This document shows positions 5,450-30,500 of a DNA stretch of 64,000 nt, one piece after another. The stretch is from an uncultured Gammaproteobacteria bacterium (GTDB lineage: Bacteria; Patescibacteriota; Patescibacteriia; Magasanikbacterales; GWA2-37-8): the NCBI GenBank assembly GCA_964478235.1, contig CAYZGX010000004.1:4320-68319 (forward strand). The letters run 5' to 3'. The notes beneath the pieces are model-generated. The model did not search any database. It was not told where the DNA came from and saw only the letters and a list, made by a program, of their open reading frames with translations. The translations under genes were made by a program, and so were the position numbers. The stretch's first letter is position 1. The number at the start of each line of letters is the position of its first letter.

Positions 5450-6406
5450 ATGCAACATACTGCTTATCAAATTCACCGCCATATTCAGCAAGCGAAAAAA
5501 GTGATGATCGTCCCCCACCAGAATCCTGATGGCGATGCGATTGGCGCCGCTACCGCTTTTCATGAATACCTCACCACGCTCGGCAAAGAGATTATTATTT
5601 TTTGCGCCACTTCAGTGACTGAGAAATTATTGTTTGTTCCGAATAGCACCAAAGTTGTTACTGATCCAACTGTCTTCAACGACCACACTATTGATACGAT
5701 CGTCGTCCTTGATTCTGGGGATTTGCGCTACGCTGGCATCGCTGAACTCGTCAAAAACCATCCAGCGACGATTATCAACATCGACCACCACGCCACTAAC
5801 GAACACTATGGCACGTACAATCTGGTTTTGACGTCAGCCGCTTCTACCACCGAAATCTTGTATCATTTTTTCCGTCACAACGGTGTGCGTGTCAACCAAC
5901 ACATGGCCACCTCTCTTTTGACCGGCCTCACCACCGACACCGGCAACTTTAGTAACGGCGCCACCTCTATGTCAGCTTTTTCTGTCGGTGGTGAGCTTAT
6001 CCGCTCGGGTGGTAATTACAACCTGATTAACAATGCCACTCTGCGCAATAAATCTGTCGACACCTTGAAGCTCTGGGGCAAAGTATTGTCGCGCCTCGAA
6101 AAAGATGAACGCCTCGGCCTTACCCACACCTATCTCACCCAAGCAGATATGCGTGAATACAATGTACCGGATAATGAAAGTGAAGGGATTGCTAATTTCT
6201 TGAATAATTTAGAAAATACCAATATCGCTTTGATTCTCAAAGAAACACCTGACGGTAAAATCAAAGGTAGTTTCCGCACCACCAAAGATACTATCGATGT
6301 CTCAGCCATGGCGAAAGCCCTTGGTGGCGGTGGTCACAAAAAAGCTGCCGGCTTTGCTTGCGAAGGCACTATTGAAAGCGTGCTTGCTCGCATCTTGGCA
6401 ATGTAA
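5450..6406 (+). CDS. nrnA: DHH/DHHA1 phosphoesterase, NrnA-type oligoribonuclease/pAp phosphatase
   Basis: Motifs HQNPDGDAIGA, DHH (IDHH) and the DHHA1 GGGGHKKAAGF. Confidence 0.85.
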   Translation: MQHTAYQIHRHIQQAKKVMIVPHQNPDGDAIGAATAFHEYLTTLGKEIIIFCATSVTEKLLFVPNSTKVVTDPTVFNDHTIDTIVVLDSGDLRYAGIAELVKNHPATIINIDHHATNEHYGTYNLVLTSAASTTEILYHFFRHNGVRVNQHMATSLLTGLTTDTGNFSNGATSMSAFSVGGELIRSGGNYNLINNATLRNKSVDTLKLWGKVLSRLEKDERLGLTHTYLTQADMREYNVPDNESEGIANFLNNLENTNIALILKETPDGKIKGSFRTTKDTIDVSAMAKALGGGGHKKAAGFACEGTIESVLARILAM

Positions 6407-6447
6407 ATTGACAACCTCGTGTAGCTTGTATATTATTAGAAAACCTT

Positions 6448-6519
6448 TCCGGGATAGTTGAGAGGTACAACGCCACGCTGTTAACGTGGATATCCTTGGT
6501 TCGATTCCAAGTCCCGGAG
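6448..6519 (+). tRNA. tRNA-Asn (anticodon GTT)
   Basis: Acceptor TCCGGGA/TCCCGGA, D-arm GTTG/CAAC, anticodon arm CCACG-CTGTTAA-CGTGG, T-arm CTTGG-TTCGATT-CCAAG. CCA is not encoded. Folded by hand. Confidence 0.85.
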
Positions 6520-6524
6520 CTAAT

Positions 6525-6565
6525 ACATAAGACGACCTATAAAGGTCGTCTTATGTATTATTTTT
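6525..6565 (+). terminator. intrinsic terminator after tRNA-Asn
   Basis: ataagacgacc / ggtcgtcttat hairpin followed by a T-run. Confidence 0.7.
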
Positions 6566-6728
6566 GAGTTTGGAACCGAACGAAAGACGCGCCAGAAAGA
6601 AGTCAGGTTTTTCTCTTATTAATTGACGCCCCACCCTATAGGGAGTACAGTACCTATCCAGCAGTTATTCAACTGTACAACCCATTGGTTCGTGCACATT
6701 CCCATGGTCTACAGATAGCACTATCCAT

Positions 6729-6806
6729 ATGACAGAAGAAAAACCAGCTGCCCCAGCTCCAGCACCGACTGTTCCAGAGAAGAAGGATGAACCGAAGAAA
6801 GTCTAG
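6729..6806 (+). CDS. possible 25-aa peptide (MTEEKPAAPAPAPTVPEKKDEPKKV) in a stand-alone mini transcription unit
   Basis: A candidate promoter TTGACG (6611) ...TACAGT sits upstream. The ORF is followed by the terminator cagacctcaccagggtctgttttt. No SD is evident. Confidence 0.25.
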   Translation: MTEEKPAAPAPAPTVPEKKDEPKKV

Positions 6807-6825
6807 TTTCCGCCAGATCGCCAAA

Positions 6826-6855
6826 CAGACCTCACCAGGGTCTGTTTTTGTTTTG
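6826..6855 (+). terminator. intrinsic terminator
   Basis: cagaccc-type stem (cagacc tcacca gggtctg) followed by tttttgtttt. Confidence 0.55.
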
Positions 6856-6921
6856 AGCGGTCGCTTGACACCCCTTCTTTGGCCGTGGGATACTAAACCG
6901 TACTAACATAACCTATTATGT

Positions 6922-7272
6922 ATGCCTGAAACACGACGCCGCGAAACTTCATCAGAAGATTTCCCAACACTCGCTATCACCAAAGGCTTGGTATCTGAAC
7001 AAGCCCAAAGTCTCAGTCGCGACCTCATTTTGGCTATCCAAAAAACTGCCGCTGAGTTTCGTGTCGCTGAAGATTCCGAGAAAAGCCAAGCTTCTTTCCG
7101 CAAGGCCTACGAAGTTCTCCAAAAATTACCAGACATTGATTTTGGCACTTTGTCCGCTATCGACTGTGGTGTTAGTGAACGTGATTTTACTATCTTCAAA
7201 AAACTTCTCCTCCGTCGCTTGGAGCATGGCAACATCGCTACTCTTGGCGCTATTGAATCGCTCGACGAATAA
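6922..7272 (+). CDS. hypothetical protein, apparently co-transcribed with clpP
   Basis: 116 aa, no recognisable domain. A candidate promoter TTGACA (6862) +17 GATACT lies upstream. The gene ends 14 nt before clpP. Confidence 0.5.
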   Translation: MPETRRRETSSEDFPTLAITKGLVSEQAQSLSRDLILAIQKTAAEFRVAEDSEKSQASFRKAYEVLQKLPDIDFGTLSAIDCGVSERDFTIFKKLLLRRLEHGNIATLGAIESLDE

Positions 7273-7286
7273 TCTAACCTTACCCT

Positions 7287-7898
7287 ATGAACAAACCAGC
7301 TCCGGTGACCTCTTTGTATTCCAACTATCTCATCCCGACAGTTATTGAAAAAACGAATATGGGTGAGCGCGCCTACGATATCTATTCGCGCCTGCTCCAA
7401 GACAGAATTATTTTCCTTGGCAGTGAAATTGATGACAACGTCGCAAACGTGATTATCGCCCAACTCCTCTTCCTTGAAAACCAAAGCCCAGAAAAAGATA
7501 TTAAATTGTATATTAATTCTCCAGGCGGATCGGTGACTGCTGGCCTCGCTATCTACGACACCATGCAACATATCAAAGCTGATGTCAGCACTATCTGTGT
7601 TGGCTTGGCGGCGAGTATGGCCGCGGTACTTCTCTCGGCTGGCAAAAAAGGTAAACGCTTCGCCTTGCCGAATAGTGAAATTATGATCCACCAAGTCATG
7701 GGTGGTATGGAGGGCCAAGCAAGCGACATCAAAATCCGCGCTGAGCGGATGCTTCGGATGAAAGAGCGTCTTAACAAGATTCTCGCCGACACCACCGGCA
7801 AAGATATTAAAGCCGTGGAAAAAGACACTGACCGCGACAACTTTATGCTCCCAACTGAGGCTCTCAAATACGGCCTAATCGATAAAGTAATCGACTAA
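7287..7898 (+). CDS. clpP: ATP-dependent Clp protease proteolytic subunit
   Basis: Classic ClpP motifs [21 protein letters not shown]...[14 protein letters not shown]...MIHQ. Confidence 0.93.
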
Positions 7899-7907
7899 AA
7901 CACACGC

Positions 7908-7950
7908 TCACAGCCTACCCGCCCTGCCCTGGGGCGGGTTTGTTTTATTT
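7908..7950 (+). terminator. intrinsic terminator after clpP
   Basis: cccgccc tgccctg gggcggg followed by tttgttttatttt. Confidence 0.65.
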
Positions 7951-7993
7951 TGGCTAATATAAGCCATTTTATCTCTTTTTCAGCTATACGGGC

Positions 7994-8022
7994 TTGACAA
8001 CAGGAGCTATCTGTGCTATACT
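7994..8022 (+). promoter_or_regulatory. near-perfect sigma70 promoter with extended -10
   Basis: TTGACA (7994-7999), 17 bp spacer, tgcTATACT (8014-8022). Confidence 0.6.
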
Positions 8023-8027
8023 TGACC

Positions 8028-8367
8028 GTTACCTGCTAAACACAGGTTTCCAGTACCAGATTTGGACGCACCGTCGAGACTATTCACACGGATCTCCCTG
8101 AAGTACTGTTTACAACCGACTATACCCTAACACTCCGGATGCAGTTTGAAAATGGATTTGGGGAAATGCTTGTTTCTCGGCTCCGTGCTGACGAAATAAG
8201 TATCTCCCCGCGTCCACGACAAGCATGGAGATGTGTTATTGGGTAGACTGGCTTCGCGCTGGGCTCTACTTCTGTAACACATCTTCTTGGGTGCGGTTTC
8301 GGTCACTTCTGTGACCACAAATGCAAAACTCCCTCGTACCAGCAATGGTGCGAGGGAGATTTTTTTT
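8028..8367 (+). ncRNA. candidate structured small RNA of about 340 nt (family unassigned)
   Basis: Runs from a consensus promoter to a strong terminator with no ORF longer than 16 codons. Hand-found hairpins: acctg-ctaaaca-caggt, tatctcc...ggagat, gatgtgtta...taacacatc (9 bp) and ggtcac-ttct-gtgacc. Confidence 0.4.
8329..8367 (+). terminator. strong intrinsic terminator (ctccctcg-N14-cgagggag followed by T8)
   Basis: An 8-bp GC-rich stem followed by attttttttcg. Its reverse complement could also close the minus-strand gene ending at 8376. Confidence 0.7.
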
Positions 8368-8375
8368 CGTTTGGT

Positions 8376-10355
8376 TTATTGTCCGGCTGGAGCGAGAGCA
8401 CCAGCAGATGTTGAAGACACCGTCCCAGCTGATGGAGCACAGGTGGTTTGCCCAGCACAACTACCCTTTGGTACGCCGACCATACAGATGCGTGGCAGTG
8501 GTCGGTAGTAACTATCAAATGGTAATTCAATCGTCTCCCCTTCTGGAGTGGTGCGCGTATAGGTGAAGGTGGCATTAGCTCCGCGGAAGGCGTTCTGACA
8601 TTTGGTTTGTCCTGGCTCAAGCGAGCCGTCGTCGATATAGAACGTTTGCTCGTCGCCGGCTGGAATCCATTTTTTCACAATCGGGTGCGTATAGGAACCA
8701 CTGCGACCATCGGGCTTGCCCCACAAGCTGAAGGCAAGTTCTTGTTTTTTATAATCAATCGTCGTGAGTAGAAGAAGGTAATTGCCGGTGTCGTTGGTAA
8801 ATTTAAAATCTAGGTGTGGCTCATAGAGCGTCGCGTCGGTGCCGGGGTTGCCGTTCACCGGATCAGCATAATAGCTCACCACGAGGGAATGATTGCGTCG
8901 CTCGGTAATCGGCATACCGGAGTTCATCGCCATACGGAAAAGGGTTGTCCCCACTTGGCACATCCCGCCACCAATTTCTGGTTTAATCTCCCGGCCTTTA
9001 ATCACCATCTCTGGCAAGAAACCATTTTCAGCGGTAAACGGGCCAGCTGATTTATTAGCAGAAAAAACTTCACCTGGTTTAATAAGCGTACCGTTGAGGC
9101 GCTTCACCGCGAGAGCAATATTTTTAATACGATTAGTGTGACTATCTTTGAAACTAGAATAGCCCGTGCCGATAAGATCGGTAATGCCGAGTTCGTTAAT
9201 GTCAGCTGTTTTGACCGTTGGCTCGACAATTTCTACCACCACACCCACTGTTCGGATGTCTGACGGTGTATTGTAGTTGCGAGCGGAAAAAGCCAAATTA
9301 ACTTGCTTGGCTGTTTCCGAAGCGTTTACTTTGAGACCGGTTTGGCTCCCTTGAAACTCTTCTACTTTGCCATCTTTGATAGCAAATTTTGCTTCTTTAG
9401 CTTCAGTATCAATTGCTGGAGAAACGGTTTCGTGGATAAAATCTCCAAGCATTGTTTCATCAAGCACTAAGACAGGCAGAGCATCAGCATCTTTTACCAC
9501 CGTTAACCAGCTCGCCATATTAGTGCGTGAAATCACCCACTCTTCGCGAGCGTTAGTTTTGTTGTTAACATAATTCAAGCTGAGCGGACCAGCGCTCAAC
9601 ACCAACGGAACATTGCCCACCACTTTTGCCACATCTTGTTTGGTAATGGTTGGTGTCGTGGTTTCAAGAGCGATACTAAGCGGACTAAATGATAAAGCTC
9701 CGAGTGTCTGCTCTATTTGTAGACGAAGTGCTTGGTAGTTAAATGATTGACCATCTTTTTCTGGAACAACGGTCGCTCGTTCGTCTCTACTGACCACAAT
9801 TCGAGCATCGGCTCCCCTGTCTTCAAACGGCGCCAAAATACCTTTCACCATATCTTCCAAGCCGTTTTCTTGAACTTCAACTGGCACGATCACGGTGTGC
9901 GTATTAAAACGAAGACGGAGTGGGGATAAAAATCTAGTGAGCACACTACCGGTGCGTCCTTGGTTGAGAGCTTCGCGAGCGGTAGATTCACTATCGAGCT
10001 GAACAATTTCACTACTCGTGTCACCAGCAACAACAGTGTTAATCACGACCGATTGCGCTTGGCCTTTGAGGTCGGTAAACGAGAGGGTGACACCTTCTTT
10101 GGCATAACGGTTGTTGGCGGTTTCAATGAGTGCAACCACTTCGTTTCGAGATAAACCACCCAGATCAAGCAGGCCGACTTTGACCCCTGGAAAGACTTTG
10201 CTGTCGTAGGACATGTTATAGAGCGCAATTCCCCCAATAGCACCTCCCACAAGCACCACCAGAACCCCGAGAACGCCTAATACCACCCGAAAACGACGTG
10301 GGGGTGGGTTAATGGTGTTTTGTACGGCTGCGGCCGTTTGTGACACGAAATCCAT
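8376..10355 (-). CDS. VanW-family membrane-anchored protein
   Basis: 659 aa. N-terminal TM segment (VLGVLGVLVVLVGGAIGGIAL). The C-terminal region RRNHSLVVSYYADPVNGNPGTDATLYEPHLDFKFTNDTGNYLLL is typical of VanW domains. Confidence 0.7.
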   Translation of the reverse strand: MDFVSQTAAAVQNTINPPPRRFRVVLGVLGVLVVLVGGAIGGIALYNMSYDSKVFPGVKVGLLDLGGLSRNEVVALIETANNRYAKEGVTLSFTDLKGQAQSVVINTVVAGDTSSEIVQLDSESTAREALNQGRTGSVLTRFLSPLRLRFNTHTVIVPVEVQENGLEDMVKGILAPFEDRGADARIVVSRDERATVVPEKDGQSFNYQALRLQIEQTLGALSFSPLSIALETTTPTITKQDVAKVVGNVPLVLSAGPLSLNYVNNKTNAREEWVISRTNMASWLTVVKDADALPVLVLDETMLGDFIHETVSPAIDTEAKEAKFAIKDGKVEEFQGSQTGLKVNASETAKQVNLAFSARNYNTPSDIRTVGVVVEIVEPTVKTADINELGITDLIGTGYSSFKDSHTNRIKNIALAVKRLNGTLIKPGEVFSANKSAGPFTAENGFLPEMVIKGREIKPEIGGGMCQVGTTLFRMAMNSGMPITERRNHSLVVSYYADPVNGNPGTDATLYEPHLDFKFTNDTGNYLLLLTTIDYKKQELAFSLWGKPDGRSGSYTHPIVKKWIPAGDEQTFYIDDGSLEPGQTKCQNAFRGANATFTYTRTTPEGETIELPFDSYYRPLPRICMVGVPKGSCAGQTTCAPSAGTVSSTSAGALAPAGQ

Positions 10356-10361
10356 AGGCGA

Positions 10362-10796
10362 CTAATCCTCAATAACAATAATAGGAATACTACTGGTAAC
10401 AATCGCCTTTGGCAAGTAAATAGCCAAGACGCCATTTCGGTATTCTGATCGCCCCATATCGGCTTTAACATCTACTGGAAGAACGATGGTGCGGGAAAAA
10501 GTTCCCCAATAGCATTCGGTGGTAAAATATTGTGATGCTTTGGGTACTGGCGACAAACGACGACCGCGAATGGTGAGAAAATCGTTGTGGAGATGAAGCT
10601 CAATATCTTCTGGTTTGGTACCGGCCATGGTGGCAACAATAACCAGCTCCTCTGGTGTTTCAGAAACATCCACCGACAACTGGCCTTCTTCATGTTCAGC
10701 GAGACTGCGCTCACCAGCTTGGCGAGCAAGCCAAATAAGCTCATCCGGAGGGCGGATTGGAGCGTTTTTAAAAGGAATAGGATTACTCATGGACAT
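10362..10796 (-). CDS. Hsp20/alpha-crystallin family small heat-shock protein
   Basis: 144 aa with the alpha-crystallin core (LSVDVSETPEELVIVATMAGTKPEDIELHLHNDFLTIRGRR...GVLAIYLPK). The promoter carries tgcTATACT. Confidence 0.85.
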   Translation of the reverse strand: MSMSNPIPFKNAPIRPPDELIWLARQAGERSLAEHEEGQLSVDVSETPEELVIVATMAGTKPEDIELHLHNDFLTIRGRRLSPVPKASQYFTTECYWGTFSRTIVLPVDVKADMGRSEYRNGVLAIYLPKAIVTSSIPIIVIED

Positions 10797-10869
10797 AGAG
10801 AAAAGAGTGGCTACTGAGCAAAGTATAGCACAGAAGGCCGGCGTGGGACAACGCCCCCGCCGAGCCGTA

Positions 10870-10898
10870 TTGACCGATTTATAGAAACTTGGTAGTAT
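10870..10898 (+). promoter_or_regulatory. sigma70 promoter of the tRNA-Phe/tRNA-Pro unit
   Basis: TTGACC (10870-10875), 17 bp spacer, TAGTAT (10893-10898). Confidence 0.5.
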
Positions 10899-10920
10899 GG
10901 TTATGCTTTATTTTGAAGAG

Positions 10921-10992
10921 GCCGTGGTAGCTCATTGGTAGAGCGCTGCCCTGAAGAGGCAGGCGTAGCCAGTTCGATTCTGGCCCGCGGCA
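10921..10992 (+). tRNA. tRNA-Phe (anticodon GAA)
   Basis: Acceptor GCCGTGG/CCGCGGC (one G-U pair), D-arm GCTC/GAGC, anticodon arm CTGCC-CTGAAGA-GGCAG, T-arm GCCAG-TTCGATT-CTGGC. Confidence 0.85.
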
Positions 10993-11019
10993 CAGGGTAT
11001 ATAACCCACCAACAATTTA

Positions 11020-11093
11020 CGGGGTATGGCTCAATTGGCTAGAGCGTCTGGTTTGGGACCAGAAGGTTGAGAGTTCAAGTCTCTCTACCCCGA
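11020..11093 (+). tRNA. tRNA-Pro (anticodon TGG)
   Basis: Acceptor CGGGGTA/TACCCCG, D-arm GCTC/GAGC, anticodon arm TCTGG-TTTGGGA-CCAGA, T-arm GAGAG-TTCAAGT-CTCTC. Confidence 0.85.
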
Positions 11094-11101
11094 CTAATAA
11101 T

Positions 11102-11135
11102 AAAACCGTCCATGATTGGACGGTTTTATTATTTA
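11102..11135 (+). terminator. intrinsic terminator after the tRNA pair
   Basis: aaaaccgtcca-tgat-tggacggtttt followed by attattt. Confidence 0.7.
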
Positions 11136-11270
11136 ACCAACAACCTTACAGACATCCGCACAAACAAAAACAGCCTTGCTAATAAGACTGTTTTTGAAAG
11201 GGTAGCGATGGTTTGCCCCCTCGACAACGGTGTCTCGCTACGATAACACCGAAGTGATACGATTCCTCGC

Positions 11271-11444
11271 CTAGAACGGCGGATCGTCTTTCTCAGGCTC
11301 TTCCGGGGGCGGGGCGGGCTTTTCCTCCTTCTTCATCTTGGGGACGAATCCCCGACACCCGATGTGCCCCAGGGAACCGTAGTAGCCCTGACCACAGAAC
11401 GAGCACGAGCGGTAGCGCAGTTCGTTATCTCGCGAACACGACAT
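11271..11444 (-). CDS. hypothetical 57-aa Cys-containing protein (GC-rich islet 2)
   Basis: MSCSRDNELRYRSCSFCGQGYYGSLGHIGCRGFVPKMKKEEKPAPPPEEPEKDDPPF. GGAGGTG lies 5 nt upstream. A promoter TTGACT, 17 bp, TAGTAT is present on the minus strand. The terminator hairpin aaaaacag...ctgttttt sits at 11168-11200. Confidence 0.5.
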   Translation of the reverse strand: MSCSRDNELRYRSCSFCGQGYYGSLGHIGCRGFVPKMKKEEKPAPPPEEPEKDDPPF

Positions 11445-11551
11445 GTAACACCTCCGAGGTTGAAGTTATTGCCATACTAACGCGCCACTTAGAGAAAGTC
11501 AACAGATTAAAAAACCACCCAATCGGGTGGTTTTGTTTTTGGTGCGGGATT

Positions 11552-11893
11552 TTAGAAGTTGAGCTTTTCGTAGAAACTGCCAACAACTGGCAATGCTTCT
11601 TGTTTGCCTTGAGCTGCTTTGACCAAGCCCATAATCCAGAGGATAAGGAAGGCGAGGGAAACCAAGATCTCAAGACCAAAGAGGAAAATGTATGAGGTAA
11701 CGATATTCCACACCACCCAAGTCAAAAGCAAGCCGAGACTTTGTTTGACATGAAACTTCACAAATGGGTCGTTCTTAGCGTCGGTCAAGAGCGGTACGAA
11801 GAACAAGAAGTAAGCAATAATTGCCATCGTCGTGTTCTTGCCACCGCCAGCTGGTGCTGGAGCTGGTGTTGGGGCTGGTTGCTGTGTGTCCAT
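11552..11893 (-). CDS. DUF4870-like small membrane protein
   Basis: AIIAYFLFFVPLLTDAKNDPFVKFHVKQSLGLLLTW. The start was chosen at MDTQQP to avoid a 32-nt overlap; an upstream ATG at 11962 is possible. Confidence 0.5.
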   Translation of the reverse strand: MDTQQPAPTPAPAPAGGGKNTTMAIIAYFLFFVPLLTDAKNDPFVKFHVKQSLGLLLTWVVWNIVTSYIFLFGLEILVSLAFLILWIMGLVKAAQGKQEALPVVGSFYEKLNF

Positions 11894-11930
11894 ACTAGAA
11901 AAGAAAGAATTAATCCCGAAGGGCGGGAGA

Positions 11931-12290
11931 TTATTTGGAAAAAGCGAGGTAGGCTGGAACAAACAAGTTCACTACTGGAACAATCATAAGCACACCGATC
12001 CAATCTGGTTTGCCGAGGCGTTTAGCAATTTCCATGAAAACCAAGATGGAGATAACGACGTTAACAAGCGGAATGAGGAAGAGCAAAAACCACCACATTG
12101 GCTTATTAGCAATTTTGAGAATCAGGAAAACGTTGACGATTGGTACAAAAGCGAGCCAGCCGTTTGGGGTAGCTGTTTTTTTAGCCATCATCATGAAACA
12201 GACACCAAAATAAATCCAGGTAACGAGGGTAATAATACCCATAACGCCGGCCATCATGCCAGCAACCTGCTGATTGATTTCACCTTCCAT
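11931..12290 (-). CDS. small polytopic membrane protein
   Basis: 119 aa with 3-4 TM helices. No specific family assigned. Confidence 0.5.
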   Translation of the reverse strand: MEGEINQQVAGMMAGVMGIITLVTWIYFGVCFMMMAKKTATPNGWLAFVPIVNVFLILKIANKPMWWFLLFLIPLVNVVISILVFMEIAKRLGKPDWIGVLMIVPVVNLFVPAYLAFSK

Positions 12291-12414: not shown

Positions 12415-12501
12415 GGAGAGATGGCCGAGTGGTTTAAGGCAGCAGTTTACTAAACTGCCGGGCTCGAAAGGGCCTCTAGAGTTCGAATCTCTATCTCTCC
12501 G
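12415..12501 (+). tRNA. class II (Ser-type) tRNA with anticodon loop TTACTAA, formally anticodon ACT
   Basis: Acceptor GGAGAGA/TCTCTCC, D-arm GCC/GGC, anticodon arm GCAGT-TTACTAA-ACTGC, long variable arm GGGCTC-GAAA-GGGCCT, T-arm TAGAG-TTCGAAT-CTCTA. A promoter TTGACT...TACACT lies upstream and a terminator downstream. Confidence 0.7.
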
Positions 12502-12506
12502 CACAA

Positions 12507-19190: not shown

Positions 19191-19225
19191 ATAAAAAGAC
19201 ACCCACAAGGGTGTCTTTTTATTGG

Positions 19226-19310
19226 CGGAGAGGGGGAGATTCGAACTCCCGAGGCCTTGCGGCCTGCAGCTTTAGCAAAGCTGGACGATAGACCACTCTG
19301 ACACCTCTCC
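19226..19310 (-). tRNA. tRNA-Ser (anticodon GCT), class II, CCA encoded (to 19223)
   Basis: Minus-strand read ggagagg tg ...cagct-ttgctaa-agctg, variable arm aggcc-gcaa-ggcct, T-arm gggag-ttcgaat-ctccc, acceptor cctctcc g CCA. The D-stem pairs poorly. A bidirectional terminator lies at 19197-19222. Confidence 0.7.
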
Positions 19311-22206: not shown

Positions 22207-24081
22207 TTATTTGGCAATTTGAGCTTCAAACTCTTTTTTAGCTTTTTCAATTTCCATCAATTGCTCTGGATTGGTGGTGACGATCTGATCTTCGGTGTAG
22301 GAAGCCACCACTTTGATAGCTGCGTGCTTAAACCCAGCAAAGAAAATACCTTCACCCACTCCACTCTCGAGCAAGAGATATTTTTCACTATCGGTGAGGA
22401 GAAACACTTTTTGGATAAGATCCACCGACGCTGGCGATTGTTTCATGAGAAGCTGAAGCGCCGAGTTGGTCACAATCGCTTGGCCATATTGCGATTTCAA
22501 GAAATCGTTCACATCTTGGGTGATAGTGGTCACACCGAGATAATATTTGCGACAACGTTTGACGAGAGCAAAGATAAACCGAGCGGAGTCTTCGTGTTGC
22601 ATGAGCCACCAAGCTTCATCAATAACTAAAATGCGTTTCTTGCGTTCACTGCGCACCACATTCCAGATATAGTTGACGATAGCGTAGATAGCTAGTGGGC
22701 GAAGCTCGTCTTCCAAATCACGCACGGAGAAAATAACCAACTGGTTTTTCATGTCTACATTGGTTGGCGAGTTGAACAAGCCAGCAAAGGTACCTTCGGT
22801 AAATTTCTTGAGCTTCAAGACCAACTCTTCGGAGCCTTCCATGCCTTCCAAAACTTCTTCTAAATCTTGCATGATTGGCGGTTCAGCGGTGCGCAAGTCT
22901 GCGTCATTGGTAATATCTTTTTTAGCATAGGTTTCAATGAGCGCCCGGTCGATCAGCGAATCCTGCGCTGTGGTGAGACCGCCAAGCATAATACGGAGCA
23001 ACCCTTTGACGGTAATAACGGCGCCACGGATAACATCTTCGGTGGACACTTCCTGACCCATTGGGCGAGGCAAATCAAACGGGTTAATTTTTGCTTCTGA
23101 TGACAGCGAGATATTTACATAGGTACCGCCAACAGCATCGCAAAGATGTTTGTATTCCATTTCCGGATCAATAACGATCACTTCCACACCCATCATCATG
23201 GTACGGAGGATTTCTAATTTCACCGCATAACTTTTACCAGCACCGGACGTCGCGAAGACGACCATGTTGGCATTCTGCAGCGAGAAACGATCAAACAAGA
23301 TAAGACTATTGTTATGGCGGTTGATGCCATACAAAATACCACTATCACTCGTGAGCTCAGCCGAAATGAATGGGAACGAGGCCGCAATTGGGCTGGAGTT
23401 CATGTTGAACGAAATCAGAAGCTCGTCGTTACAGAGTGGCATAGTGGAATTAAAACCTTGCTCTGCTTGATAGAGAACTTTGCGGGTGTTGATAAGTTTG
23501 GCACCAAAAATACTTTCAATATCTTCCGAGGCTTGATCGAGCTTTTCTTTGCTTTCAGCGTATACGGTGATGTAAAAAGCAAATTGGAAAAAGTGCTCGG
23601 TCCCCTGAGTCAAACTGTCGCGCAATTGTTCAATATCGCGAAGCGCTGTTTCACGTATTGGGTCGCGCGGCGCGCCTTTGTCATGATCAGCAGTGATTTG
23701 GGCTTCGAGCGCACCCACTTTATTTTTGAGTTGTTTTAAAATAATTTCTGCTTTGACCGGATAAAAATACATGGAAATATCCATGGTGCGCGACAGGTTG
23801 ATAATTGGCGAACTCCAACCGATAGAAATATACCGAGGATACGAAACGACAAATAAGGTTCGGCAAAAGGTGGTGCCGAGCTGGATAAAATTAGACTCGA
23901 CATTAAAAGCTGCCGGCGCAATAAGATCGCGAATCGAGACGACACCTTCGCGATAAATCCGCTCTTCTTCGAGCGTCACCAACTCTTCGCTCGATTTATC
24001 CGCGAGTTTTTTCTCTTCTTTTTCCAGTTTATTTTCTTTGATGCCAGTTTCTTTGCTGACACTCGTTGGTTTAAAAGCCAT
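22207..24081 (-). CDS. VirB4/TraE/PrgJ-family T4SS ATPase, C-terminal ATPase portion
   Basis: Walker A GAGKSYAV, Walker B ILVIDEAWW. Its N-terminal region aligns to the VirB4 mid-domain. Confidence 0.85.
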   Translation of the reverse strand: MAFKPTSVSKETGIKENKLEKEEKKLADKSSEELVTLEEERIYREGVVSIRDLIAPAAFNVESNFIQLGTTFCRTLFVVSYPRYISIGWSSPIINLSRTMDISMYFYPVKAEIILKQLKNKVGALEAQITADHDKGAPRDPIRETALRDIEQLRDSLTQGTEHFFQFAFYITVYAESKEKLDQASEDIESIFGAKLINTRKVLYQAEQGFNSTMPLCNDELLISFNMNSSPIAASFPFISAELTSDSGILYGINRHNNSLILFDRFSLQNANMVVFATSGAGKSYAVKLEILRTMMMGVEVIVIDPEMEYKHLCDAVGGTYVNISLSSEAKINPFDLPRPMGQEVSTEDVIRGAVITVKGLLRIMLGGLTTAQDSLIDRALIETYAKKDITNDADLRTAEPPIMQDLEEVLEGMEGSEELVLKLKKFTEGTFAGLFNSPTNVDMKNQLVIFSVRDLEDELRPLAIYAIVNYIWNVVRSERKKRILVIDEAWWLMQHEDSARFIFALVKRCRKYYLGVTTITQDVNDFLKSQYGQAIVTNSALQLLMKQSPASVDLIQKVFLLTDSEKYLLLESGVGEGIFFAGFKHAAIKVVASYTEDQIVTTNPEQLMEIEKAKKEFEAQIAK

Positions 24082-24082
24082 A

Positions 24083-24766
24083 TTATTCTTCGGTTCGTAA
24101 TTCGTTCAAATTGCCCAACTCTTGGGATAAAGCAATATCAGTATTATACGTCGAAAAGTACAGTTCGATAAGCGACTGAGTATCGAGACGCACGGTGGTG
24201 AGCCCCATCGAGCTCAAGCCCGACTCAATTTGGCGCACTCGGCTATCTAAATCATATTTGCGCTTAGTAAATCGTTCGCCTTTGAGCTTGATCACCGAGG
24301 CTGGATTGACCACTTCGCCCATTCTGGCAAAAAATCCTTTATTTTTGTTGGAGCTTGGATCGTAGGGTACGACAACGTAAAACTGCTTGTTCATAATTTC
24401 GCCAAGCGATACGAGCTCGCTCACAAAGGCTCGATAATCGGCAATTTGCGTGCGAAGTAATTCGTTAGTTTGATTTTTTTCTTGCTCCAACAGCTTATCC
24501 ATATACGGCTTGGTCTGGAGTTTGCGCGATTGGATCAAAATCTGGAGCGGATGATCGAGTGAATTTAAAAATGAAACGTAGCCCGAAATAATCGCACTTT
24601 GTTCATCTTCGTTTTTGAGGGCGAAGTTGATACTCGACACCATAATGACCGCTCGAAGCGTACCATCTTTCATCACCACCGTGTCTTGCTTGATTTCTGA
24701 AATCAAAAGATGGTGCTGGGTGGAAGGCATTTTTGGTTTTTTTTGAACTGGCTTTGTATCTTTCAT
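24083..24766 (-). CDS. VirB4-family N-terminal domain as a separate ORF
   Basis: VVMKDGTLRAVIMVSSINFALKNEDEQSAIISGYVSFLNSLDHPLQILIQSRKL is typical of the N-terminus of Gram-positive conjugative VirB4. The stop is TAA, followed by 1 nt, then the ATG of the next ORF. Confidence 0.6.
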   Translation of the reverse strand: MKDTKPVQKKPKMPSTQHHLLISEIKQDTVVMKDGTLRAVIMVSSINFALKNEDEQSAIISGYVSFLNSLDHPLQILIQSRKLQTKPYMDKLLEQEKNQTNELLRTQIADYRAFVSELVSLGEIMNKQFYVVVPYDPSSNKNKGFFARMGEVVNPASVIKLKGERFTKRKYDLDSRVRQIESGLSSMGLTTVRLDTQSLIELYFSTYNTDIALSQELGNLNELRTEE

Positions 24767-24769
24767 ACA

Positions 24770-25201
24770 TTATTCCCCTTTATAATAACCGCCCGTATTC
24801 ACCATGAGTGATAAATCTCGGATGCGCGTATGCGAGGCGGACTTGGTCAAATCTGCTTTCTCCTCAACTTTTTCTGGCTCATTATCTTTCATAATCGCTT
24901 TGAGCTCAGCAACGGTATTAAATTTATTCCAGGCTCGGCGACTTGGACGGCGGGTAGTCTGGAGAATATTCAGCAAGAAAAAATGAAACGGTTGGCCGTT
25001 GATAGTAGCAAAGGCAAAAATCAGGGTGAGCCCGCCGATCAGGGCGAGAAGCACAATAAAGAGCGATGTATCGGCAAATTTAAATGATAAAAAACACAGC
25101 AAACCACCAACTAGGATAATCACAAATTGACGGCTCGTAATTGGCCCAAAAATTTTATCCTCCACGTCAATAAATTGTGGCACCATGAATTGGTTCATCA
25201 T
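24770..25201 (-). CDS. VirB3/PrgI/TcpE-like small membrane protein
   Basis: 143 aa with two TM helices, immediately upstream of VirB4 as in Gram-positive T4SS loci. Confidence 0.45.
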   Translation of the reverse strand: MMNQFMVPQFIDVEDKIFGPITSRQFVIILVGGLLCFLSFKFADTSLFIVLLALIGGLTLIFAFATINGQPFHFFLLNILQTTRRPSRRAWNKFNTVAELKAIMKDNEPEKVEEKADLTKSASHTRIRDLSLMVNTGGYYKGE

Positions 25202-26445
25202 AGGTAGTCGAGTTGACGCTCCATAGTTATAATCGCTTGCATTTCCAGGAATGTAATTGTTTTAGTATCGGTGAGAGCGCTAAGCGGAGTCTTGCCGGCA
25301 AGCGCATGAATCGCTGTCGTTACATATTCTCCGTAGAGCGGTGACGCTTTCCAAGCATCAAGCGCTTCGAGATATAGCAAAATTGACTCGCCTTGTAGGT
25401 TGATAAACTTTTGTTTGAGGCGAAGAGCTGCTTCTTCAGGTTTGTTTGAAAGCCGACGGAAATCGGTGAGACCAAACGAGCGAATTTCGTCGGTTGGACC
25501 AACTGCTCCAGGTTTGGCAATAATATCTTTCATTGACGATTTTGCTCGCGAGTCGGCGGCGAGTTTCATAAACGGATCTTCGGCAGCAGTAGTTTTGGTG
25601 AATGTTTCAATGACTTTCTCTTTCGTGAGCGGAGCGGCTGGGGTTGAAGCTGGTCGAGGCGACACCACCGGCATTGGGCGTGGAACAACAGGGGTAGCGA
25701 CCGGCTGAGCGGTCATTGGCTTTGGTGCTGGCTGGAAAGCCGGCTTTGACGGAGTAGCCTGAACAACCGGCTTAACTGGAGCAGGTGCCACTGGTTTTGG
25801 CGAACTCGTTGCCTCTTGGCCATGTTTGAAAGCATTAAATGGTGTGGTGGTGGCTGGTAGTTCTTTTTTGTACGGAATAAGATCTTCAAAGCCTGGAAGA
25901 TGTTTCAAAACTTCGTGAGCCTGGTCGCGAGTGAGACCAACTCCCCCATCTTGTTCAGATCGACTGAGCGCTTCTTCTACCTGATCAACACTACGAATAT
26001 CTTTGAGGCGAAGCTGAATCAAAGTGCGAAGACGGTTGAGATTATTTTTAGAAACAGTAAACGATAATTTTCCGATGATTTCATCGGCTTGAGCATCACG
26101 CGGCAAACTAATCAGTGGTGCGCCAGAGCTGGTTTTTGGAGCTGGCTCTTCGAGGAGTGAGGACATGTCAGCTTTTGGCAGAGCTGACTTGGCTAGGCGA
26201 GGTGGTGCGACTGGTGAAGTCGCTACTACCGGCTTTTGCTCAGGAGCAGGCTCAACTGGTAAATTATCCGGCACGACAACGGGTGGTTTTTCTGGAACAG
26301 AGGCAACCTGAGTCGGAACGGCTGGAACTGGAGCTGGCGAAGCCGATGCTCCAGCTTTTTTTTGACGAATCTCATCAAGGCTCATGCGCACCATAGTGCC
26401 ATCAGCTTTTTTGACAAGAATTGTTTTTCCTCCTGTGTCGGCCAT
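25198..26445 (-). CDS. hypothetical Pro/Ala/Val-rich protein
   Basis: 415 aa with low-complexity PVxP tracts. ATGA overlap with the downstream gene. Confidence 0.5.
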   Translation of the reverse strand: MADTGGKTILVKKADGTMVRMSLDEIRQKKAGASASPAPVPAVPTQVASVPEKPPVVVPDNLPVEPAPEQKPVVATSPVAPPRLAKSALPKADMSSLLEEPAPKTSSGAPLISLPRDAQADEIIGKLSFTVSKNNLNRLRTLIQLRLKDIRSVDQVEEALSRSEQDGGVGLTRDQAHEVLKHLPGFEDLIPYKKELPATTTPFNAFKHGQEATSSPKPVAPAPVKPVVQATPSKPAFQPAPKPMTAQPVATPVVPRPMPVVSPRPASTPAAPLTKEKVIETFTKTTAAEDPFMKLAADSRAKSSMKDIIAKPGAVGPTDEIRSFGLTDFRRLSNKPEEAALRLKQKFINLQGESILLYLEALDAWKASPLYGEYVTTAIHALAGKTPLSALTDTKTITFLEMQAIITMERQLDYL

Positions 26446-26452
26446 AAAAATA

Positions 26453-27499
26453 TTATTTTAAAAGCGCTTCGTTCCATTCAAACGCGCCAGTTTGTTCGTT
26501 GTAGACATACAACTCTCGTATTGTATCATCGTTATACTTTACTGCCCACTCTTCGAGCATACCAAGCACCGCTTCAGGATCTTCAAATTGCCCATCTTCA
26601 CTCTGTTTGAATTTACTTTGGGCAACAAGTTGAATATCTAGATAGGTTGGTTTTGGGGTTGGAGCGGCAGCAACAGAAGGTTTTACAGCTGGCTTTGCTT
26701 CGGTCTTTGGGGCGGTTTGTGGGGCTGGAACTGGCTCAGTAACAGCCGAAGAAGGCCCCTCGCCTACAACCTTGCCAGCAAGCGCTCGCTTATATTGCAC
26801 AGCGCCTTCTTCAATATAGGCGTCGATCGCATCAGCCATGCTTGGATTAGTATAGGCCTGCACTGTAGCCCAAATTGACGACGGCTCGCGCTCGGTAAAG
26901 AAGTCGTATAACCCAACGAGTTGCTCGATCAACTCTTTATCTTCAGCAATAGAAAAGCGCATTGCCCCCTCATCATTTTTCGCAAAAAAGGTATCTTTAA
27001 TTTTTCCCATGACTTCGGCCACTTCGAGCGAGGTAGTGGTGCTCAATTTTGTTCGTTTAATATCGGTGATAAGATCTTTAACCAGCACATCTTTTCCTTG
27101 CCACACCCCGACAAACGCCTCAGATTCAAAAAAGGCTTGGCGAATATCTGCATAAAGTACGGCCATATCTTTGTCATCAAGACTGCGTGAAGCCAAATAC
27201 CACATGATTGTTTTCCAGACATCAAAATCAAGAGTAAAGGCCATTGCAATCTGCCGACCAATCACTATCTTTACAAAGGTATCGCGATCGAGCTCAGCAT
27301 AGAGCTTCCAGGATAGCTCTGTATACAATCTAAAATACGTCCAGCGATACAAACTATCAACCCGAGCATTTTCTCCTTTAAAATCTTCGTGGAGTTTGCC
27401 CCAGGTAACCAAAAGATCTTCAGGTTTTTTATGCCCGCTACGAATAGCTTGTTCAATCGCTTCAAACGATTGTATACTGACTTGTTTAACAAACAACAT
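26453..27499 (-). CDS. hypothetical protein (T4SS operon)
   Basis: 348 aa with no recognisable domain. Confidence 0.5.
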   Translation of the reverse strand: MLFVKQVSIQSFEAIEQAIRSGHKKPEDLLVTWGKLHEDFKGENARVDSLYRWTYFRLYTELSWKLYAELDRDTFVKIVIGRQIAMAFTLDFDVWKTIMWYLASRSLDDKDMAVLYADIRQAFFESEAFVGVWQGKDVLVKDLITDIKRTKLSTTTSLEVAEVMGKIKDTFFAKNDEGAMRFSIAEDKELIEQLVGLYDFFTEREPSSIWATVQAYTNPSMADAIDAYIEEGAVQYKRALAGKVVGEGPSSAVTEPVPAPQTAPKTEAKPAVKPSVAAAPTPKPTYLDIQLVAQSKFKQSEDGQFEDPEAVLGMLEEWAVKYNDDTIRELYVYNEQTGAFEWNEALLK

Positions 27500-27542
27500 A
27501 GTGTAAATAAACCGCTCTAAAAACTCTGTTCACTAAATAGTA

Positions 27543-30500
27543 CTAAGGGTTCGCTGGTGGTTGAGGTGGCGGAGGTGTACCAGCGGCACCGCTTTGACCT
27601 GCATTATTACGATTCTGTCTATTTAAATTATCAATAACGCCCTTAACATAATTCTTTTGGTTAGCATCTGTCATACGCTCATAGGCAAACTGCAACATCT
27701 GCGCCAAACCACGGCTATCTTTGGCACTTTTTACTAACTCATCAACCAACTCCTGTGTCTTGCCCCCTGAATTATCCAAAATTTCAGCGAAGTCTGCCTT
27801 GACGTATTCATCAATACTAGAAGTAATGTTGTTGGTAACTGGCGCTACCATTTTCACTACGATATTCTTAGATTCGTCAGATTTGACGACGTATTTACCA
27901 TTTGTATTTTTATCTACCGAACCACCAAAGCCGGCTAAAGTGGTAATTTTAGAGCCGGACAACGCATTGTCACGACGACCTTTCACATAACTTAAGCCAT
28001 CAGAATCATCTTTTGTAAGCACTGTTTTGAGCTGACCATCTGGTAGTGTTTCCACACTGAAAAGACCAGCTAAACTTAGCGCACCTTGACCAGCGGCTTT
28101 TTCAGACTCAAGACGAATTTGCGAGCGTAGTTCTTCAGGAAGAGAGCTAAACTCCCGCTCAACATCAGCCTCACTTACCGCTTTATTTAAAATAGCGCTA
28201 AGACGCTGAGCTTGATTTCTTTTTAGCGCAGGAGCTGCAATTTCAACACTTGAATCAAGCGGAATGTTGGCCCCTGCTTTATTAAGTTCTTTTAATACTG
28301 TCATCTGAATACCTTCAGCGTAGGCAGCGTGACGATCCAAATTACCAATAGACATTTCAATAGCGCCTTGTCGCAACTGATTCAAGGCTGCTGCAGCTTC
28401 TGCTGCTTGCGCTGGGTTTCCTGCTGAAGCCAAAGCTCTTTCGGCATCTTGTACTCTTTTCAACTGCGCAAGACTACGGGCCATAGCGGAGATGAAGTCA
28501 CCAACAACCTGAGCTTCAATTTTAACTTTAGCTTGCTTATCAAGTGTTTTTTGTAAATTAGTGGCTTCGCTAGCGCGATTGTTGCGAGTGAGATATTCGT
28601 CGCGAGCCTTGGCAACTTCTCGTTCTCGCTCAGTGCTTGTTTTATATTCCACCTGCTCAGTGACAGCTTTGGCGGCAAAAAAACCTGGAACACGTTCTTG
28701 AGCGGCCAACGTTTGTTCGGAACGAACAGCCTGACGACCAGCTTCATCGCGCTCGGCGGCTGCTTTTGCACCAAAGACATCAGCTTTTTGTTCGGCTGCC
28801 AAGACACTGGCTTCGCGCTTACTTTCTACACCAGCTTGAACAACATTTTTTTCTGCTTCATATTTAAACACTTTAGCTTTTTGTTCGGCAGCTAGAATTT
28901 GTTCGGCATTTTTAGCTTCAATCTGTGCTTCAGCGGCTTTAGTGTTGGCTCGAGCGCCAAGAATTATACCTTCTCGTTCATGGAATGTTTCATCGCCTTT
29001 TTCCATTAATTTAAGCTCATGCATGGCGTATTTTTCTGCTCGTTTTGCTTCGGAATGTTGTTCGATTTGATGTTCACGAACACCTAAATCAAGCTTGAGC
29101 TGACCTTGCCATGATTTACTCGTGCTGTAGGTTTCTTCCACAATAACCTCCTGCATGTGCGCAGCCTTTTCAACATCTTCTAGACGCTTCTCAGCACGAC
29201 CGCGGGTTTCAACAATCATAGCACCGAGTGTGCCAAGCTTACCGGCCAAACCAGCTTTTTCTTTATTTTTATCAACAGTCCCTTGCTGTTTGGCGAGCTC
29301 TGCCTGTTCTTTTTCTGTCAAACCGCCGCCGGTTCGCTGTTTCTGTTCGAGACGAGCAATTTCTTTTTTAGCAGCAACTGTTTCTTCGATAGCTTTAGCT
29401 TGCGCGTTACGTTTTTCATCAGATTTTCCAATAGCAATTTTTGCCACGTTCAAACCGGTTTCAGCCAAGCGAACGGCTGGACGAGCGGCATATTTAAGAG
29501 CTTCTTTGCCTGCTTCAGCACCTTTATCAACAGCCCATCGTGCCGCCATCGCACCACTGGCATACATACCAACTTTCTTGCCAAAATCCACTGCTTCACC
29601 AGCCCATTCGCCACCGACGCCACCAAGCTGACTGGCAGCACGAGCGCCGACCATCAACATACCAATAGCGATAGCGAAATTGGCCATATTGTTCCAATCC
29701 CAGGCCGCACCAACACCCGATGCCTGATCACCCAAAATACTGTCGGCGTCGGCCGTGTTAATTACCGAGCCACCAGCGATTTCATCATGCACCTTGCCGT
29801 TGCCAGCAGTGACAAAAGCGAGCCAGATAAAAAACAACAACACCGGACCGGTGATGACGTTGGCTGTAAATTCACTCCACCACTGATTAGCATATTCTTC
29901 GGTTTGTGGAAGTACGCTCAACACAAACGCGAGTGGCGACAAAACAATCAGCACCCAGAGCACCACCATGCGGGCAATCAACATGAACAAAATAGCCAGC
30001 ATCATTCCCATCGCAATAGAGGCAAAGACGAGCGAACCAACTGAGGCTAGGAAAATATTCGTATTATCAAAAGTTTTTGGATCAGCACTGGTGGAGAGTT
30101 CGCGAATCTTGTCCAAATTAAACATCTGAATTAAATTACCGCCAGCAGTGGCGGCAATACCGTTCACAAAAGTAATCATCACTACTTGCGCAACATCAAT
30201 CACGACACCACAAATAGTTCGACTAAAGTTCACCAGAATAGCGGCCATCACCATTTTTACCAACATTTTTTTCCATTCGTAATGTTCCAGGCCAAGAATG
30301 GTGCCAAAAGCAATGACTAATAAAATCACAACAAAACCCATGTTGGTAATATCTCGGACCATCACCCAACCAACATTGACGGCGGAGGCATTTAAGAAAT
30401 CGTTATAGCCCGCGAGCTCAATAATAAAACTGAGCGCAAACATGGTGAGCGACAAACACAAGCGAGCGAGCGCCAAAATAATACTGGTGAGAAGCGACAA

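Follow-up and report, generated by a model that had tools for sequence, protein, structure and literature searches.

A previously uncatalogued family of rod-shaped structured RNAs with an invariant bulge in Patescibacteria

A promoter-to-terminator unit downstream of clpP

The stretch of DNA analyzed here, called the window below, comprises 64,000 nucleotides of contig CAYZGX010000004.1 (assembly GCA_964478235.1) and carries, between its clpP gene and a vanW-like gene, a unit running from a promoter to a terminator (7994-8367). Our analysis indicates that we are dealing with a genuine gene, the product of which is a highly structured non-coding RNA, its transcription being predicted from the signals described below, and that the RNA belongs to a new, previously uncatalogued family that is widespread in bacteria of the Candidate Phyla Radiation (CPR). 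An earlier note on the same DNA had proposed an independently transcribed, structured small RNA (sRNA) of unassigned family. The conservation of the promoters and terminators, the heavy covariation and the lack of a conserved open reading frame (ORF) support this proposal.

The unit opens with a sigma-70-type promoter on the forward strand (7994-8022), in which TTGACA (7994-7999) is followed by a 17-nt spacer and TATACT, with the TG of an extended -10 element at 8014-8015. The earlier note had called it a textbook promoter; apart from the TG it scores 11 of 12 matches to the consensus, is among the two best promoter-like sites in 6000-12000, and is kept in the relatives L201, L202 and L203. 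With its start placed 7 nt past the -10 element and its end at the U-tract, both positions being read from the sequence, the predicted primary transcript is 339 nt long (8029-8367, +). It closes with an intrinsic terminator (8329-8367, +) composed of a 13-bp stem (8329-8358, with 8 G-C pairs), a 4-nt loop and an A followed by T8 (8359-8367). This hairpin with its T8 takes the top rank in a terminator scan, in keeping with its prior description as one of the strongest in the window, and its stem shows compensatory changes in relatives.

The upstream neighbor is clpP on the same strand (7287-7898, +; Pfam CLP_protease, E = 2.6e-84), which has a terminator of its own (7917-7939); hence, the unit is not a 3' extension of clpP. 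Downstream, the next gene does lie on the opposite strand, as had been stated, and is a convergent VanW/PG_binding_4 gene (8376-10355, -). An A-rich tract is found just 5' of the terminator stem of the RNA, and the stop codon of the vanW-like gene is at 8376. Because this tract adjoins the stem upstream, the terminator at 8329-8367 probably serves both the RNA and the convergent gene. The spacer from the clpP terminator to the promoter of the RNA contains a second small hairpin (7951-7966; TGGCTAATATAAGCCA, then TTTTAT), which L203 conserves and which has a counterpart of similar sequence at the same position in L201.

The 339-nt RNA has a minimum free energy (MFE) of -135.4 kcal/mol, whereas its dinucleotide shuffles come to -92.5 +/- 5.2 (z = -8.3); its reverse complement yields z = -4.0. 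The claim that the region holds no ORF above 16 codons did not stand, as there are ORFs of 35 and 29 codons on the forward strand, both starting with ATG, and one of 72 codons on the reverse strand starting with TTG. None of them is conserved: across nine homologous loci their start, frame and length are not kept, and for the 35-codon ORF, L202 lacks the ATG and L201 has a 1-nt indel that shifts the frame.

A covarying core with an invariant ten-nucleotide bulge

The ClpP protein of the window points to Patescibacteria, its best named matches being from Candidatus Magasanikbacteria. We fetched the clpP loci of species-representative genomes and compared them using nhmmer and blastn, which uncovered a conserved segment of about 100 nt, corresponding to window positions ~8203-8304, in six of these loci (L001, L002, L004, L006, L008 and L009). 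The segment lies just downstream of clpP in five and about 1.5 kb downstream in L004, and all six copies share CACGACAAGCATGG ... TTCTTG. A scan of metagenome contigs with the exact pattern CACGACAAGCATGG-N45-65-TTCTTG returned matches in at least 120 metagenomic stretches from groundwater, sediment, lake and similar samples, and relatives retrieved through ClpP homologues supplied further copies. The core is conserved in Patescibacteria genomes and beyond them in metagenomes; the earlier note would have taken a lack of conservation in relatives as grounds for rejection. Once duplicates and three chance matches had been discarded, the alignment comprised 109 distinct sequences, and from these we built a covariance model (CM R1). 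This model recovers the known copies in relatives and finds a single match in the window (8190-8314, 84.1 bits, E = 1e-23). The window copy carries all of the family invariants and shows every defining feature, namely the outer stem, CA-CGACAAGCAU-GG, UUCUUG, the long inner helix and the apical G.U/G-C step.

RNAalifold, single-sequence folds and explicit pair counts concur on a rod-like hairpin for the family core, which the CM R1 match and covariation place at 8208-8296 (+), in the 3' half of the window RNA. Its outer stem, formed in the window by CCGCGUCCA (8208-8216) with UGGGUGCGG (8288-8296), has at least 8 pairs and ends in invariant C-G and A-U pairs. There follows on the 5' strand a 10-nt bulge, CGACAAGCAU (8217-8226), opposite the single unpaired U8287; it is identical in 109 of 109 aligned sequences and is left unpaired both by RNAalifold and by the single-sequence folds. 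The inner helix, which is defined by covariation (8227-8286), starts with G-C, G.U and R-U and extends over ~25-30 pairs with small irregularities. It includes the 9-bp stem singled out in the earlier note, which is real and is made by GAUGUGUUA (8230-8238) and UAACACAUC (8275-8283). The invariant 3' strand UUCUUG (8284-8289) is proposed to provide the partners for A8216-U8288 and C8215-G8289 on one side of the bulge and for G8227-C8286 and G8228.U8285 on the other; as these pairs never vary, they are assigned from geometry only. At the apex (8250-8260), a G8250.U8260 wobble is followed by G8251-C8259, C8252-G8258 and the loop UUCGC. Family-wide, this apical step comprises a G.U pair (107 of 109 sequences), a G-C pair (88 of 109), a covarying third Y-R pair (CG in 59, UA in 24) and a UUCG-like loop.

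The covariance analysis with homologous regions that had been suggested for this locus gave a strong signal. Over 30 pairs in the 109 sequences, 86.5% of the cells can pair as opposed to 66.1% in shuffles, with 0 of 500 shuffles reaching the observed value, and the covariation score of 0.566 compares with 0.199 for shuffles and 0.09-0.18 for slid partners. Double changes are seen at 23 of the 30 tested pairs. G.U is retained at three positions (in 109/109, 86/109 and 107/109 sequences), and these conserved G.U pairs identify the forward strand as the RNA strand.

Distribution, gene signals and double modules

Flanking proteins labeled Magasanikbacteria and Falkowbacteria indicate that the family occurs in Patescibacteria, and in one large subgroup the flanking RNase J is labeled Falkowbacteria or Patescibacteria. 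CM R1 had zero matches in 67 non-CPR clpP loci, and no copy was found within 10 kb in the clpP loci of Uhrbacteria, Paceibacter, Nomurabacteria, Peregrinibacteria and Saccharibacteria.

A TTGACA-17-TAnnnT promoter is found upstream of the core, at a distance of 11-336 nt, in 100 of 124 loci, and in 95 of these 100 the -35 hexamer is exactly TTGACA. A T-run of at least 4 follows the core in nearly all loci, usually within ~160 nt. The predicted transcripts accordingly range from 110 to 480 nt with a median of ~175 nt, and the short forms that we examined consist of one 55-60-bp rod reaching from near the 5' end to the U-tract.

Some lineages have two modules in a single predicted transcript, both with the invariants kept. 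The two are in tandem in L140 (both within ~200-470 on the minus strand), L168 (8132-8392), L146 (2055-2315) and L090. A further group (L088, L097, L163, L170 and L198) has two modules ~220-380 nt apart, the first of which reads CAUAG in place of CAUGG. In this group, long-range helices appear to enclose the second copy, and the predicted RNAs measure ~420-470 nt. The presence of two modules per transcript fits a binding site, and not a housekeeping RNA with a single active site.

The commonest neighbor is a VanW-like gene, seen in 87 of the 124 loci. The RNA always adjoins the 3' end of this gene, and both orientations occur (64 convergent, 21 co-directional). Other genes found nearby code for ClpP (43 loci), Hsp20 (52 loci), RNase J and a DHH phosphoesterase. 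The core-to-vanW spacing is only 20-100 nt in many loci. The VanW/PG-binding protein has an apparent N-terminal membrane-spanning stretch along with peptidoglycan-binding domains. In a Falkowbacteria-like subgroup the RNA is flanked instead by RNase J on the upstream side and by a predicted protein of 250 aa on the downstream side, and the linkage to vanW is absent from it, for which reason we read the adjacency as synteny. VanW was accordingly rejected as a functional partner, being missing in this subgroup, placed in either orientation and apparently membrane-anchored.

Three of the contigs that carry the new RNA have other structured RNAs. One has a LOOT RNA (RF03000; L164:12227-12344, -; 78 bits, above the gathering score) ~7.7 kb from the new RNA, which provides taxonomic context for this orphan Rfam motif. 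Another has a match to the SAM-I riboswitch (L139:1427-1545, +; 48.7 bits against a gathering score of 44.4). The third, from the Falkowbacteria-like group, has a full-length 16S rRNA gene (L144:4234-5715, -) ~6 kb from the RNA. The 14.7 kb of that contig that were analyzed yielded neither 23S nor 5S rRNA, consistent with unlinked rRNA genes, as reported for the CPR.

One copy lies in a phage contig. The IMG/VR contig IMGVR_UViG_3300033066_000406 (L206) has a complete module (2495-2616, +; 65.6 bits) and encodes the small and large subunits of terminase, a ParB-methyltransferase, GroES and a GroEL that is 47% identical to that of the window. The module is situated directly upstream of a small ORF followed by groES and groEL and has no obvious U-tract. 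A second viral match is weak (20 bits). Such capture by a phage is the behavior expected of an RNA that engages a host factor.

The long form in the window

The 339-nt window RNA is a long form that has a lineage-specific 5' domain in addition to the core. We compared it with the corresponding regions of relatives whose ClpP is 83-99% identical to that of the window (L203, L201, L202, L208-L210 and L212); the core is kept in all of them, as is the promoter wherever it could be located. A small hairpin at the 5' end (ACCUGC UAAAC ACAGGU, 8031-8047, +) is predicted by the MFE fold, but some relatives lack it, and 8031-8047 is unpaired in a consensus fold computed from ten relatives. The lineage-specific domain itself (8048-8152, +) is recognizable in close relatives by the blocks CCGUC.AGA, ACACGG, UCCGGAU and GUUUGAAA, and an nhmmer search with the 5' domain alone found no homologue beyond them. 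Directly 5' of the core is a hairpin (UGGAUUUGGGGAA...UCUCCCC, 8153-8209, +) whose GGGRA/UYCCC helix covaries at pairs 152-156/197-201 (AU to GC and AU to UA), and on the 3' side there is a small hairpin, GGUCAC UUCU GUGACC (8301-8316, +), that differs in sequence among relatives and still pairs (e.g., GGGGG...CCCCC). Two segments, UGGAU (8153-8157) and CGCACC (8066-8071), are complementary to the outer-stem strands of the core (8208-8216 and 8288-8296); UGGAU could be a competitor for the 5' strand of that stem. This alternative pairing may be a gate on the exposure of the bulge or may reflect the limits of MFE prediction.

Comparison with catalogued RNAs

At the gathering score, Rfam 15 detects only four tRNAs in the 64-kb window. 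A permissive search at E <= 10 yields only chance-level matches in 7850-8450 (11-17 bits, far under the gathering scores) and, in 20 short homologous loci, no credible family on the element where coordinates were checked. The Infernal/Rfam scan that the earlier note had recommended hence assigns no known family to the element. Gathering-score scans of 407 kb of related loci returned tRNAs, 16S rRNA and one LOOT only, but they resample the same neighborhood and are uninformative about signal recognition particle (SRP) RNA, 6S RNA and RNase P RNA; a regular expression for the canonical SRP domain IV that was run over ~1 Mb of CPR DNA found no convincing site and is equally uninformative. Literature on non-coding RNA, SRP and 6S RNA in CPR/Patescibacteria and on Saccharibacteria transcriptomes, together with searches for the sequence strings, furnished no description of the element. 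With neither an Rfam 15 match nor a published description, we consider the RNA to represent a new family. Among the identities that the note had entertained, a novel sRNA fits best, a 6S-like RNA survives as a loose analogy only and a divergent housekeeping RNA finds no support.

The orphan RNAs LOOT, raiA, OLE and Bacteroidales-1 offer a parallel in that they too were found by covariation only, are confined to one lineage plus metagenomes and have their own promoter and terminator. They differ in sequence and fold, and none of their Rfam models matches; in comparison with them, the new family is an unusually simple one-bulge rod with unusually long invariants. Decoys such as the CsrB/RsmZ-type RNAs and the RNA anti-CRISPRs of phages likewise display repeated modules resembling protein sites (one or two in the present family) and have a counterpart in the phage copy. 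However, the module here is a bulged rod of ~90 nt, unlike a short GGA hairpin or a CRISPR repeat. We therefore liken the family to rod-shaped, lineage-specific and probably protein-binding sRNAs, such as 6S, 4.5S and the orphan motifs, and do not call it categorically new because its mechanism is not established.

Several known motifs and systems were also considered and dropped as fitting poorly: the K-turn, loop E, the 11-nt receptor, the S15 G.U/G-C site and the CsrA GGA site; Y RNA/Ro, T-box, integron attC, the diversity-generating retroelement, retron, bridge RNA and omega RNA; and group II domain V and U6, with which AGCAUGG is shared.

Possible functions of the RNA

The reading that we favor, with a confidence just short of even, is that of a stable trans-acting RNA that offers a conserved protein a specific, high-affinity site, as a ribonucleoprotein (RNP) scaffold or a decoy. 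The RNA gene would be abundantly transcribed. Every member has one or two rod-shaped hairpin modules, in which the invariant bulge CGACAAGCAU and the apical G.U step would constitute the recognition surface for the protein. The covarying stems, whose sequence can change provided that pairing is maintained, would only set the spacing of the recognition features; the fixed features are the bulge opposite one U, its flanking C-G/A-U and G-C/G.U pairs and the apical G.U/G-C step. In the window, the 5' domain is predicted to pair with one strand of the outer stem and may thereby control whether the bulge is exposed. The analysis shows the gene-like anatomy, the family with its structure and conservation, and its absence from known families; transcription itself, action in trans, a protein partner and the gating are all inferred. 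We are led to this reading by the fixed single-stranded nucleotides on a covarying scaffold, the fixed G.U step, modular duplication, the consensus promoter and capture by a phage.

Several points weigh against it. The full-length MFE structure of the window RNA omits the canonical outer stem, at -135.4 kcal/mol versus -124.4 kcal/mol with the core enforced; the alternative pairing of the outer stem is thus favored by 11 kcal/mol, and it is without covariation support. The invariance of the bulge is partly built in, as the metagenomic set was fetched using an exact pattern that contains it; however, the genome-derived members (L001-L009), which were found by nhmmer/blastn before the pattern was defined, show the same invariants. 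The neighboring genes (VanW/PG-binding, ClpP, Hsp20, RNase J and DHH phosphoesterase) suggest no RNA-binding partner. Finally, ten invariant single-stranded nucleotides would suit a seed for base pairing, a ligand pocket or a catalytic pocket just as well.

The most concrete version of the protein-binding reading is a functional analogue of 6S RNA, which we regard as unlikely in itself. Here, the rod would mimic promoter DNA, with the bulge as the template side of the open complex and the apical G.U/G-C step as a "-35-like" contact, such that the holoenzyme would be sequestered and then released by product-RNA synthesis. Both 6S RNA (ssrS, RF00013 and 6S-like) and the new family are rods closed by pairing of the 5' and 3' ends, have an unpaired center on the 5' strand (the template side in 6S RNA), a promoter of the type seen in abundant RNAs and lengths of ~130-200 nt in most lineages, and occur in more than one copy in some genomes. 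The consensus-strength promoter, the median length of ~175 nt and the conserved apical step ~25-27 nt from the bulge add to this likeness. The edge of the E. coli 6S bubble, which we take to read ACCACAAGAAUGUGG, may be set beside CGACAAGCAUGGGG here as a lead and not as a test. No canonical 6S RNA turned up in the scanned CPR DNA, which is weak evidence in that the same neighborhood was resampled.

A 6S RNA is defined as a rod with a closing stem, a central single-stranded region and an apical stem, in which the 3' side of the central bubble carries a -10-like key recognition element (PMC8876501). The rod shape is evident in the consensus, single-sequence and short-form folds of the family, but the two-sided bubble is lacking: where 6S RNA has a -10-like opposite strand of ~10 nt, the consensus fold leaves one unpaired U, and the 3' side could amount at most to the 6 invariant nucleotides UUCUUG. 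In addition, no Rfam 6S or 6S-like model matches at E <= 10 in 7850-8450 or the 20 loci, and the 14+6 invariant nucleotides contrast with the little sequence identity among 6S lineages. The two-module transcripts also speak against a 6S-like role, as we know of no 6S precedent for them.

Equally doubtful is a base-pairing riboregulator, in which the bulge would serve as the seed for an invariant target, such as the 5' strand of 16S helix 34 or an mRNA start region (complement AUGCUUGUCG). Ten invariant unpaired nucleotides on a stable scaffold would suit such a role, and the complement of the bulge contains AUG. The best duplex with the co-resident 16S rRNA of L144 falls on GCAUGGUUGUCGUC, which we take to lie in helix 34, and has 11 of 12 Watson-Crick pairs around one G.G (-16.3 kcal/mol), but it is no better than chance, since 9% of shuffled 14-mers do as well (p ~0.09). 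Complementary sites in the window and in the neighborhoods of ~130 loci are only the antisense of the RNA copies themselves. Furthermore, an mRNA target would not stay invariant where ClpP is only ~70-80% identical, and a bulge within a continuous rod provides a poor geometry for a 10-bp intermolecular helix.

We attach the same low likelihood to a combination of these elements, namely an RNP core that is specific to this Patescibacteria lineage, has no counterpart in other organisms and was copied by phages. It might, for instance, be a global regulator that captures RNA polymerase or the ribosome by means of a one-sided "bubble," in which case the bulge would serve as template for a product RNA or bind to 16S helix 34.

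Somewhat less probable still is a ligand-sensing or catalytic RNA, in which a small-molecule or metal pocket or an active site would be built from the bulge together with the U opposite it and the tandem G.U pairs. Invariant internal-loop nucleotides between freely covarying helices are a signature of riboswitch aptamers and small ribozymes, the tandem modules recall tandem aptamers, tandem G.U pairs adjoin the bulge, and the phage module lies directly upstream of orf-groES-groEL without a U-tract. Cellular copies, on the other hand, have their own promoter and, in nearly all loci, the T-run after the core. In 64 of the 88 VanW-adjacent cases the next gene is convergent, so that the RNA exerts no cis control on a gene downstream. 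No riboswitch or ribozyme model of Rfam matches the element, and no metabolic gene is associated with the loci.

A very divergent housekeeping RNA, be it RNase P, the 4.5S RNA of the SRP or transfer-messenger RNA (tmRNA), is highly improbable, and we regard all three, along with a small protein, as effectively excluded. What might have suggested RNase P RNA (RF00010/RF00011) is the size (~340 nt), strong promoter and high conservation of the window form, and a 10-mer to which the earlier note drew attention. This 10-mer, GTCCACGACA, does occur in the 3' region of E. coli rnpB: a 49-mer that includes it gave rnpB matches of 100% among the records listed and of at least 95% throughout the 5,426 genomes. 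The resemblance to E. coli rnpB is, however, limited to GUCCACGACA: the GUC lies in a freely covarying stem (GTC in the DNA), and only CACGACA is conserved family-wide, so the match is a coincidence. RNase P RNA is a multi-helix molecule of about 270 nt or more with catalytic and specificity domains. In contrast, many members of the new family are single hairpins predicted to measure ~125-150 nt from promoter to U-tract, and two modules per transcript are seen in some lineages. The P4 strands (GAGGAAAGUCC on the 5' side, ACAGAA...GGCUUA on the 3' side) are likewise lacking, with neither AAAGUCC nor GGCUUA in 8029-8367, in line with the note's own failure to find further RNase P motifs, and motifs CR-I to CR-V are absent. 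The class A and B models found no match at the gathering score in the 64 kb, nor at E <= 10 in 7850-8450 and the 20 loci. CPR RNase P RNAs do escape default Rfam thresholds, but in a census of circular CPR genomes the diverged RNAs were found in all 35 once the thresholds were lowered (PMC8172020). Such genomes therefore probably have their RNase P RNA elsewhere.

As for the SRP, the short forms resemble 4.5S RNA (RF00169) in being a single long hairpin of ~110-130 nt that has conserved elements at its apex and an internal loop of asymmetric N x 1 type, and both would be protein-binding platforms. Domain IV of SRP RNA has a GNAR tetraloop, a symmetric AGG/AGCA loop and a 4 x 1 asymmetric loop. 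The apical loops here are instead UUCG, UCCG, UACG and the like, the AGG/AGCA loop is absent, and the asymmetric loop is 10 x 1 and located ~30 bp from the apex. The pattern AGG-N2-4-GNRA-N2-4-AGCA is missing from the element, as the note had also found, and neither the Bacteria_small_SRP nor the large_SRP models match at E <= 10 in 7850-8450 and the 20 loci. The tRNA-like ends and tag reading frame of a tmRNA are likewise lacking, as the note had said of the ends, with ARAGORN finding no tmRNA in the window and Rfam giving no match at E <= 10. The last alternative, that there is no RNA gene but a gene for a small protein, a site acting at the level of the DNA or a promoter and terminator that arose by chance within a long spacer, is scarcely tenable: it could appeal to the three ORFs, but these are unconserved, the compensatory changes and strand-specific G.U pairs point to RNA, and more than 100 loci conserve both promoter and terminator.

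Other features of the window

The window codes for two tRNA-Ser for AGY codons (12415-12502, + and 19223-19310, -). One has the anticodon loop UUACUAA, corresponding to the anticodon ACU with A34, which would be unusual in bacteria; the other has the usual GCU. A gene cluster on the minus strand (22207-30701 and 32159-40039) includes a TraG/VirB4-like P-loop ATPase (22207-24081) and large ORFs without a Pfam match, among them one of 1,052 aa and, further on, one of 2,626 aa. This cluster may specify a type IV secretion or pilus-like surface system.

Implications

The CPR/Patescibacteria account for a large part of the diversity of bacteria. Hardly any have been cultured, little has been done to look for RNA regulators in them, and roughly half of their genes lack an assigned function. 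The consensus promoter seen in most lineages examined, the invariant 10-nt element, the conserved chromosomal position and the copy in at least one phage together make it likely that the RNA described here is abundant and belongs to the core components of the cell. An alignment, a covariance model and a simple candidate recognition element are now available for the family and offer a handle for genome annotation, metatranscriptome mapping and pull-downs. If its partner were RNA polymerase or the ribosome, the RNA would represent a new way to build a 6S-like or ribosome-targeting regulator. Were it indeed the core of a lineage-specific RNP, then the phages that infect these bacteria would have acquired their copy as a means of manipulating the host factor that the RNA engages.

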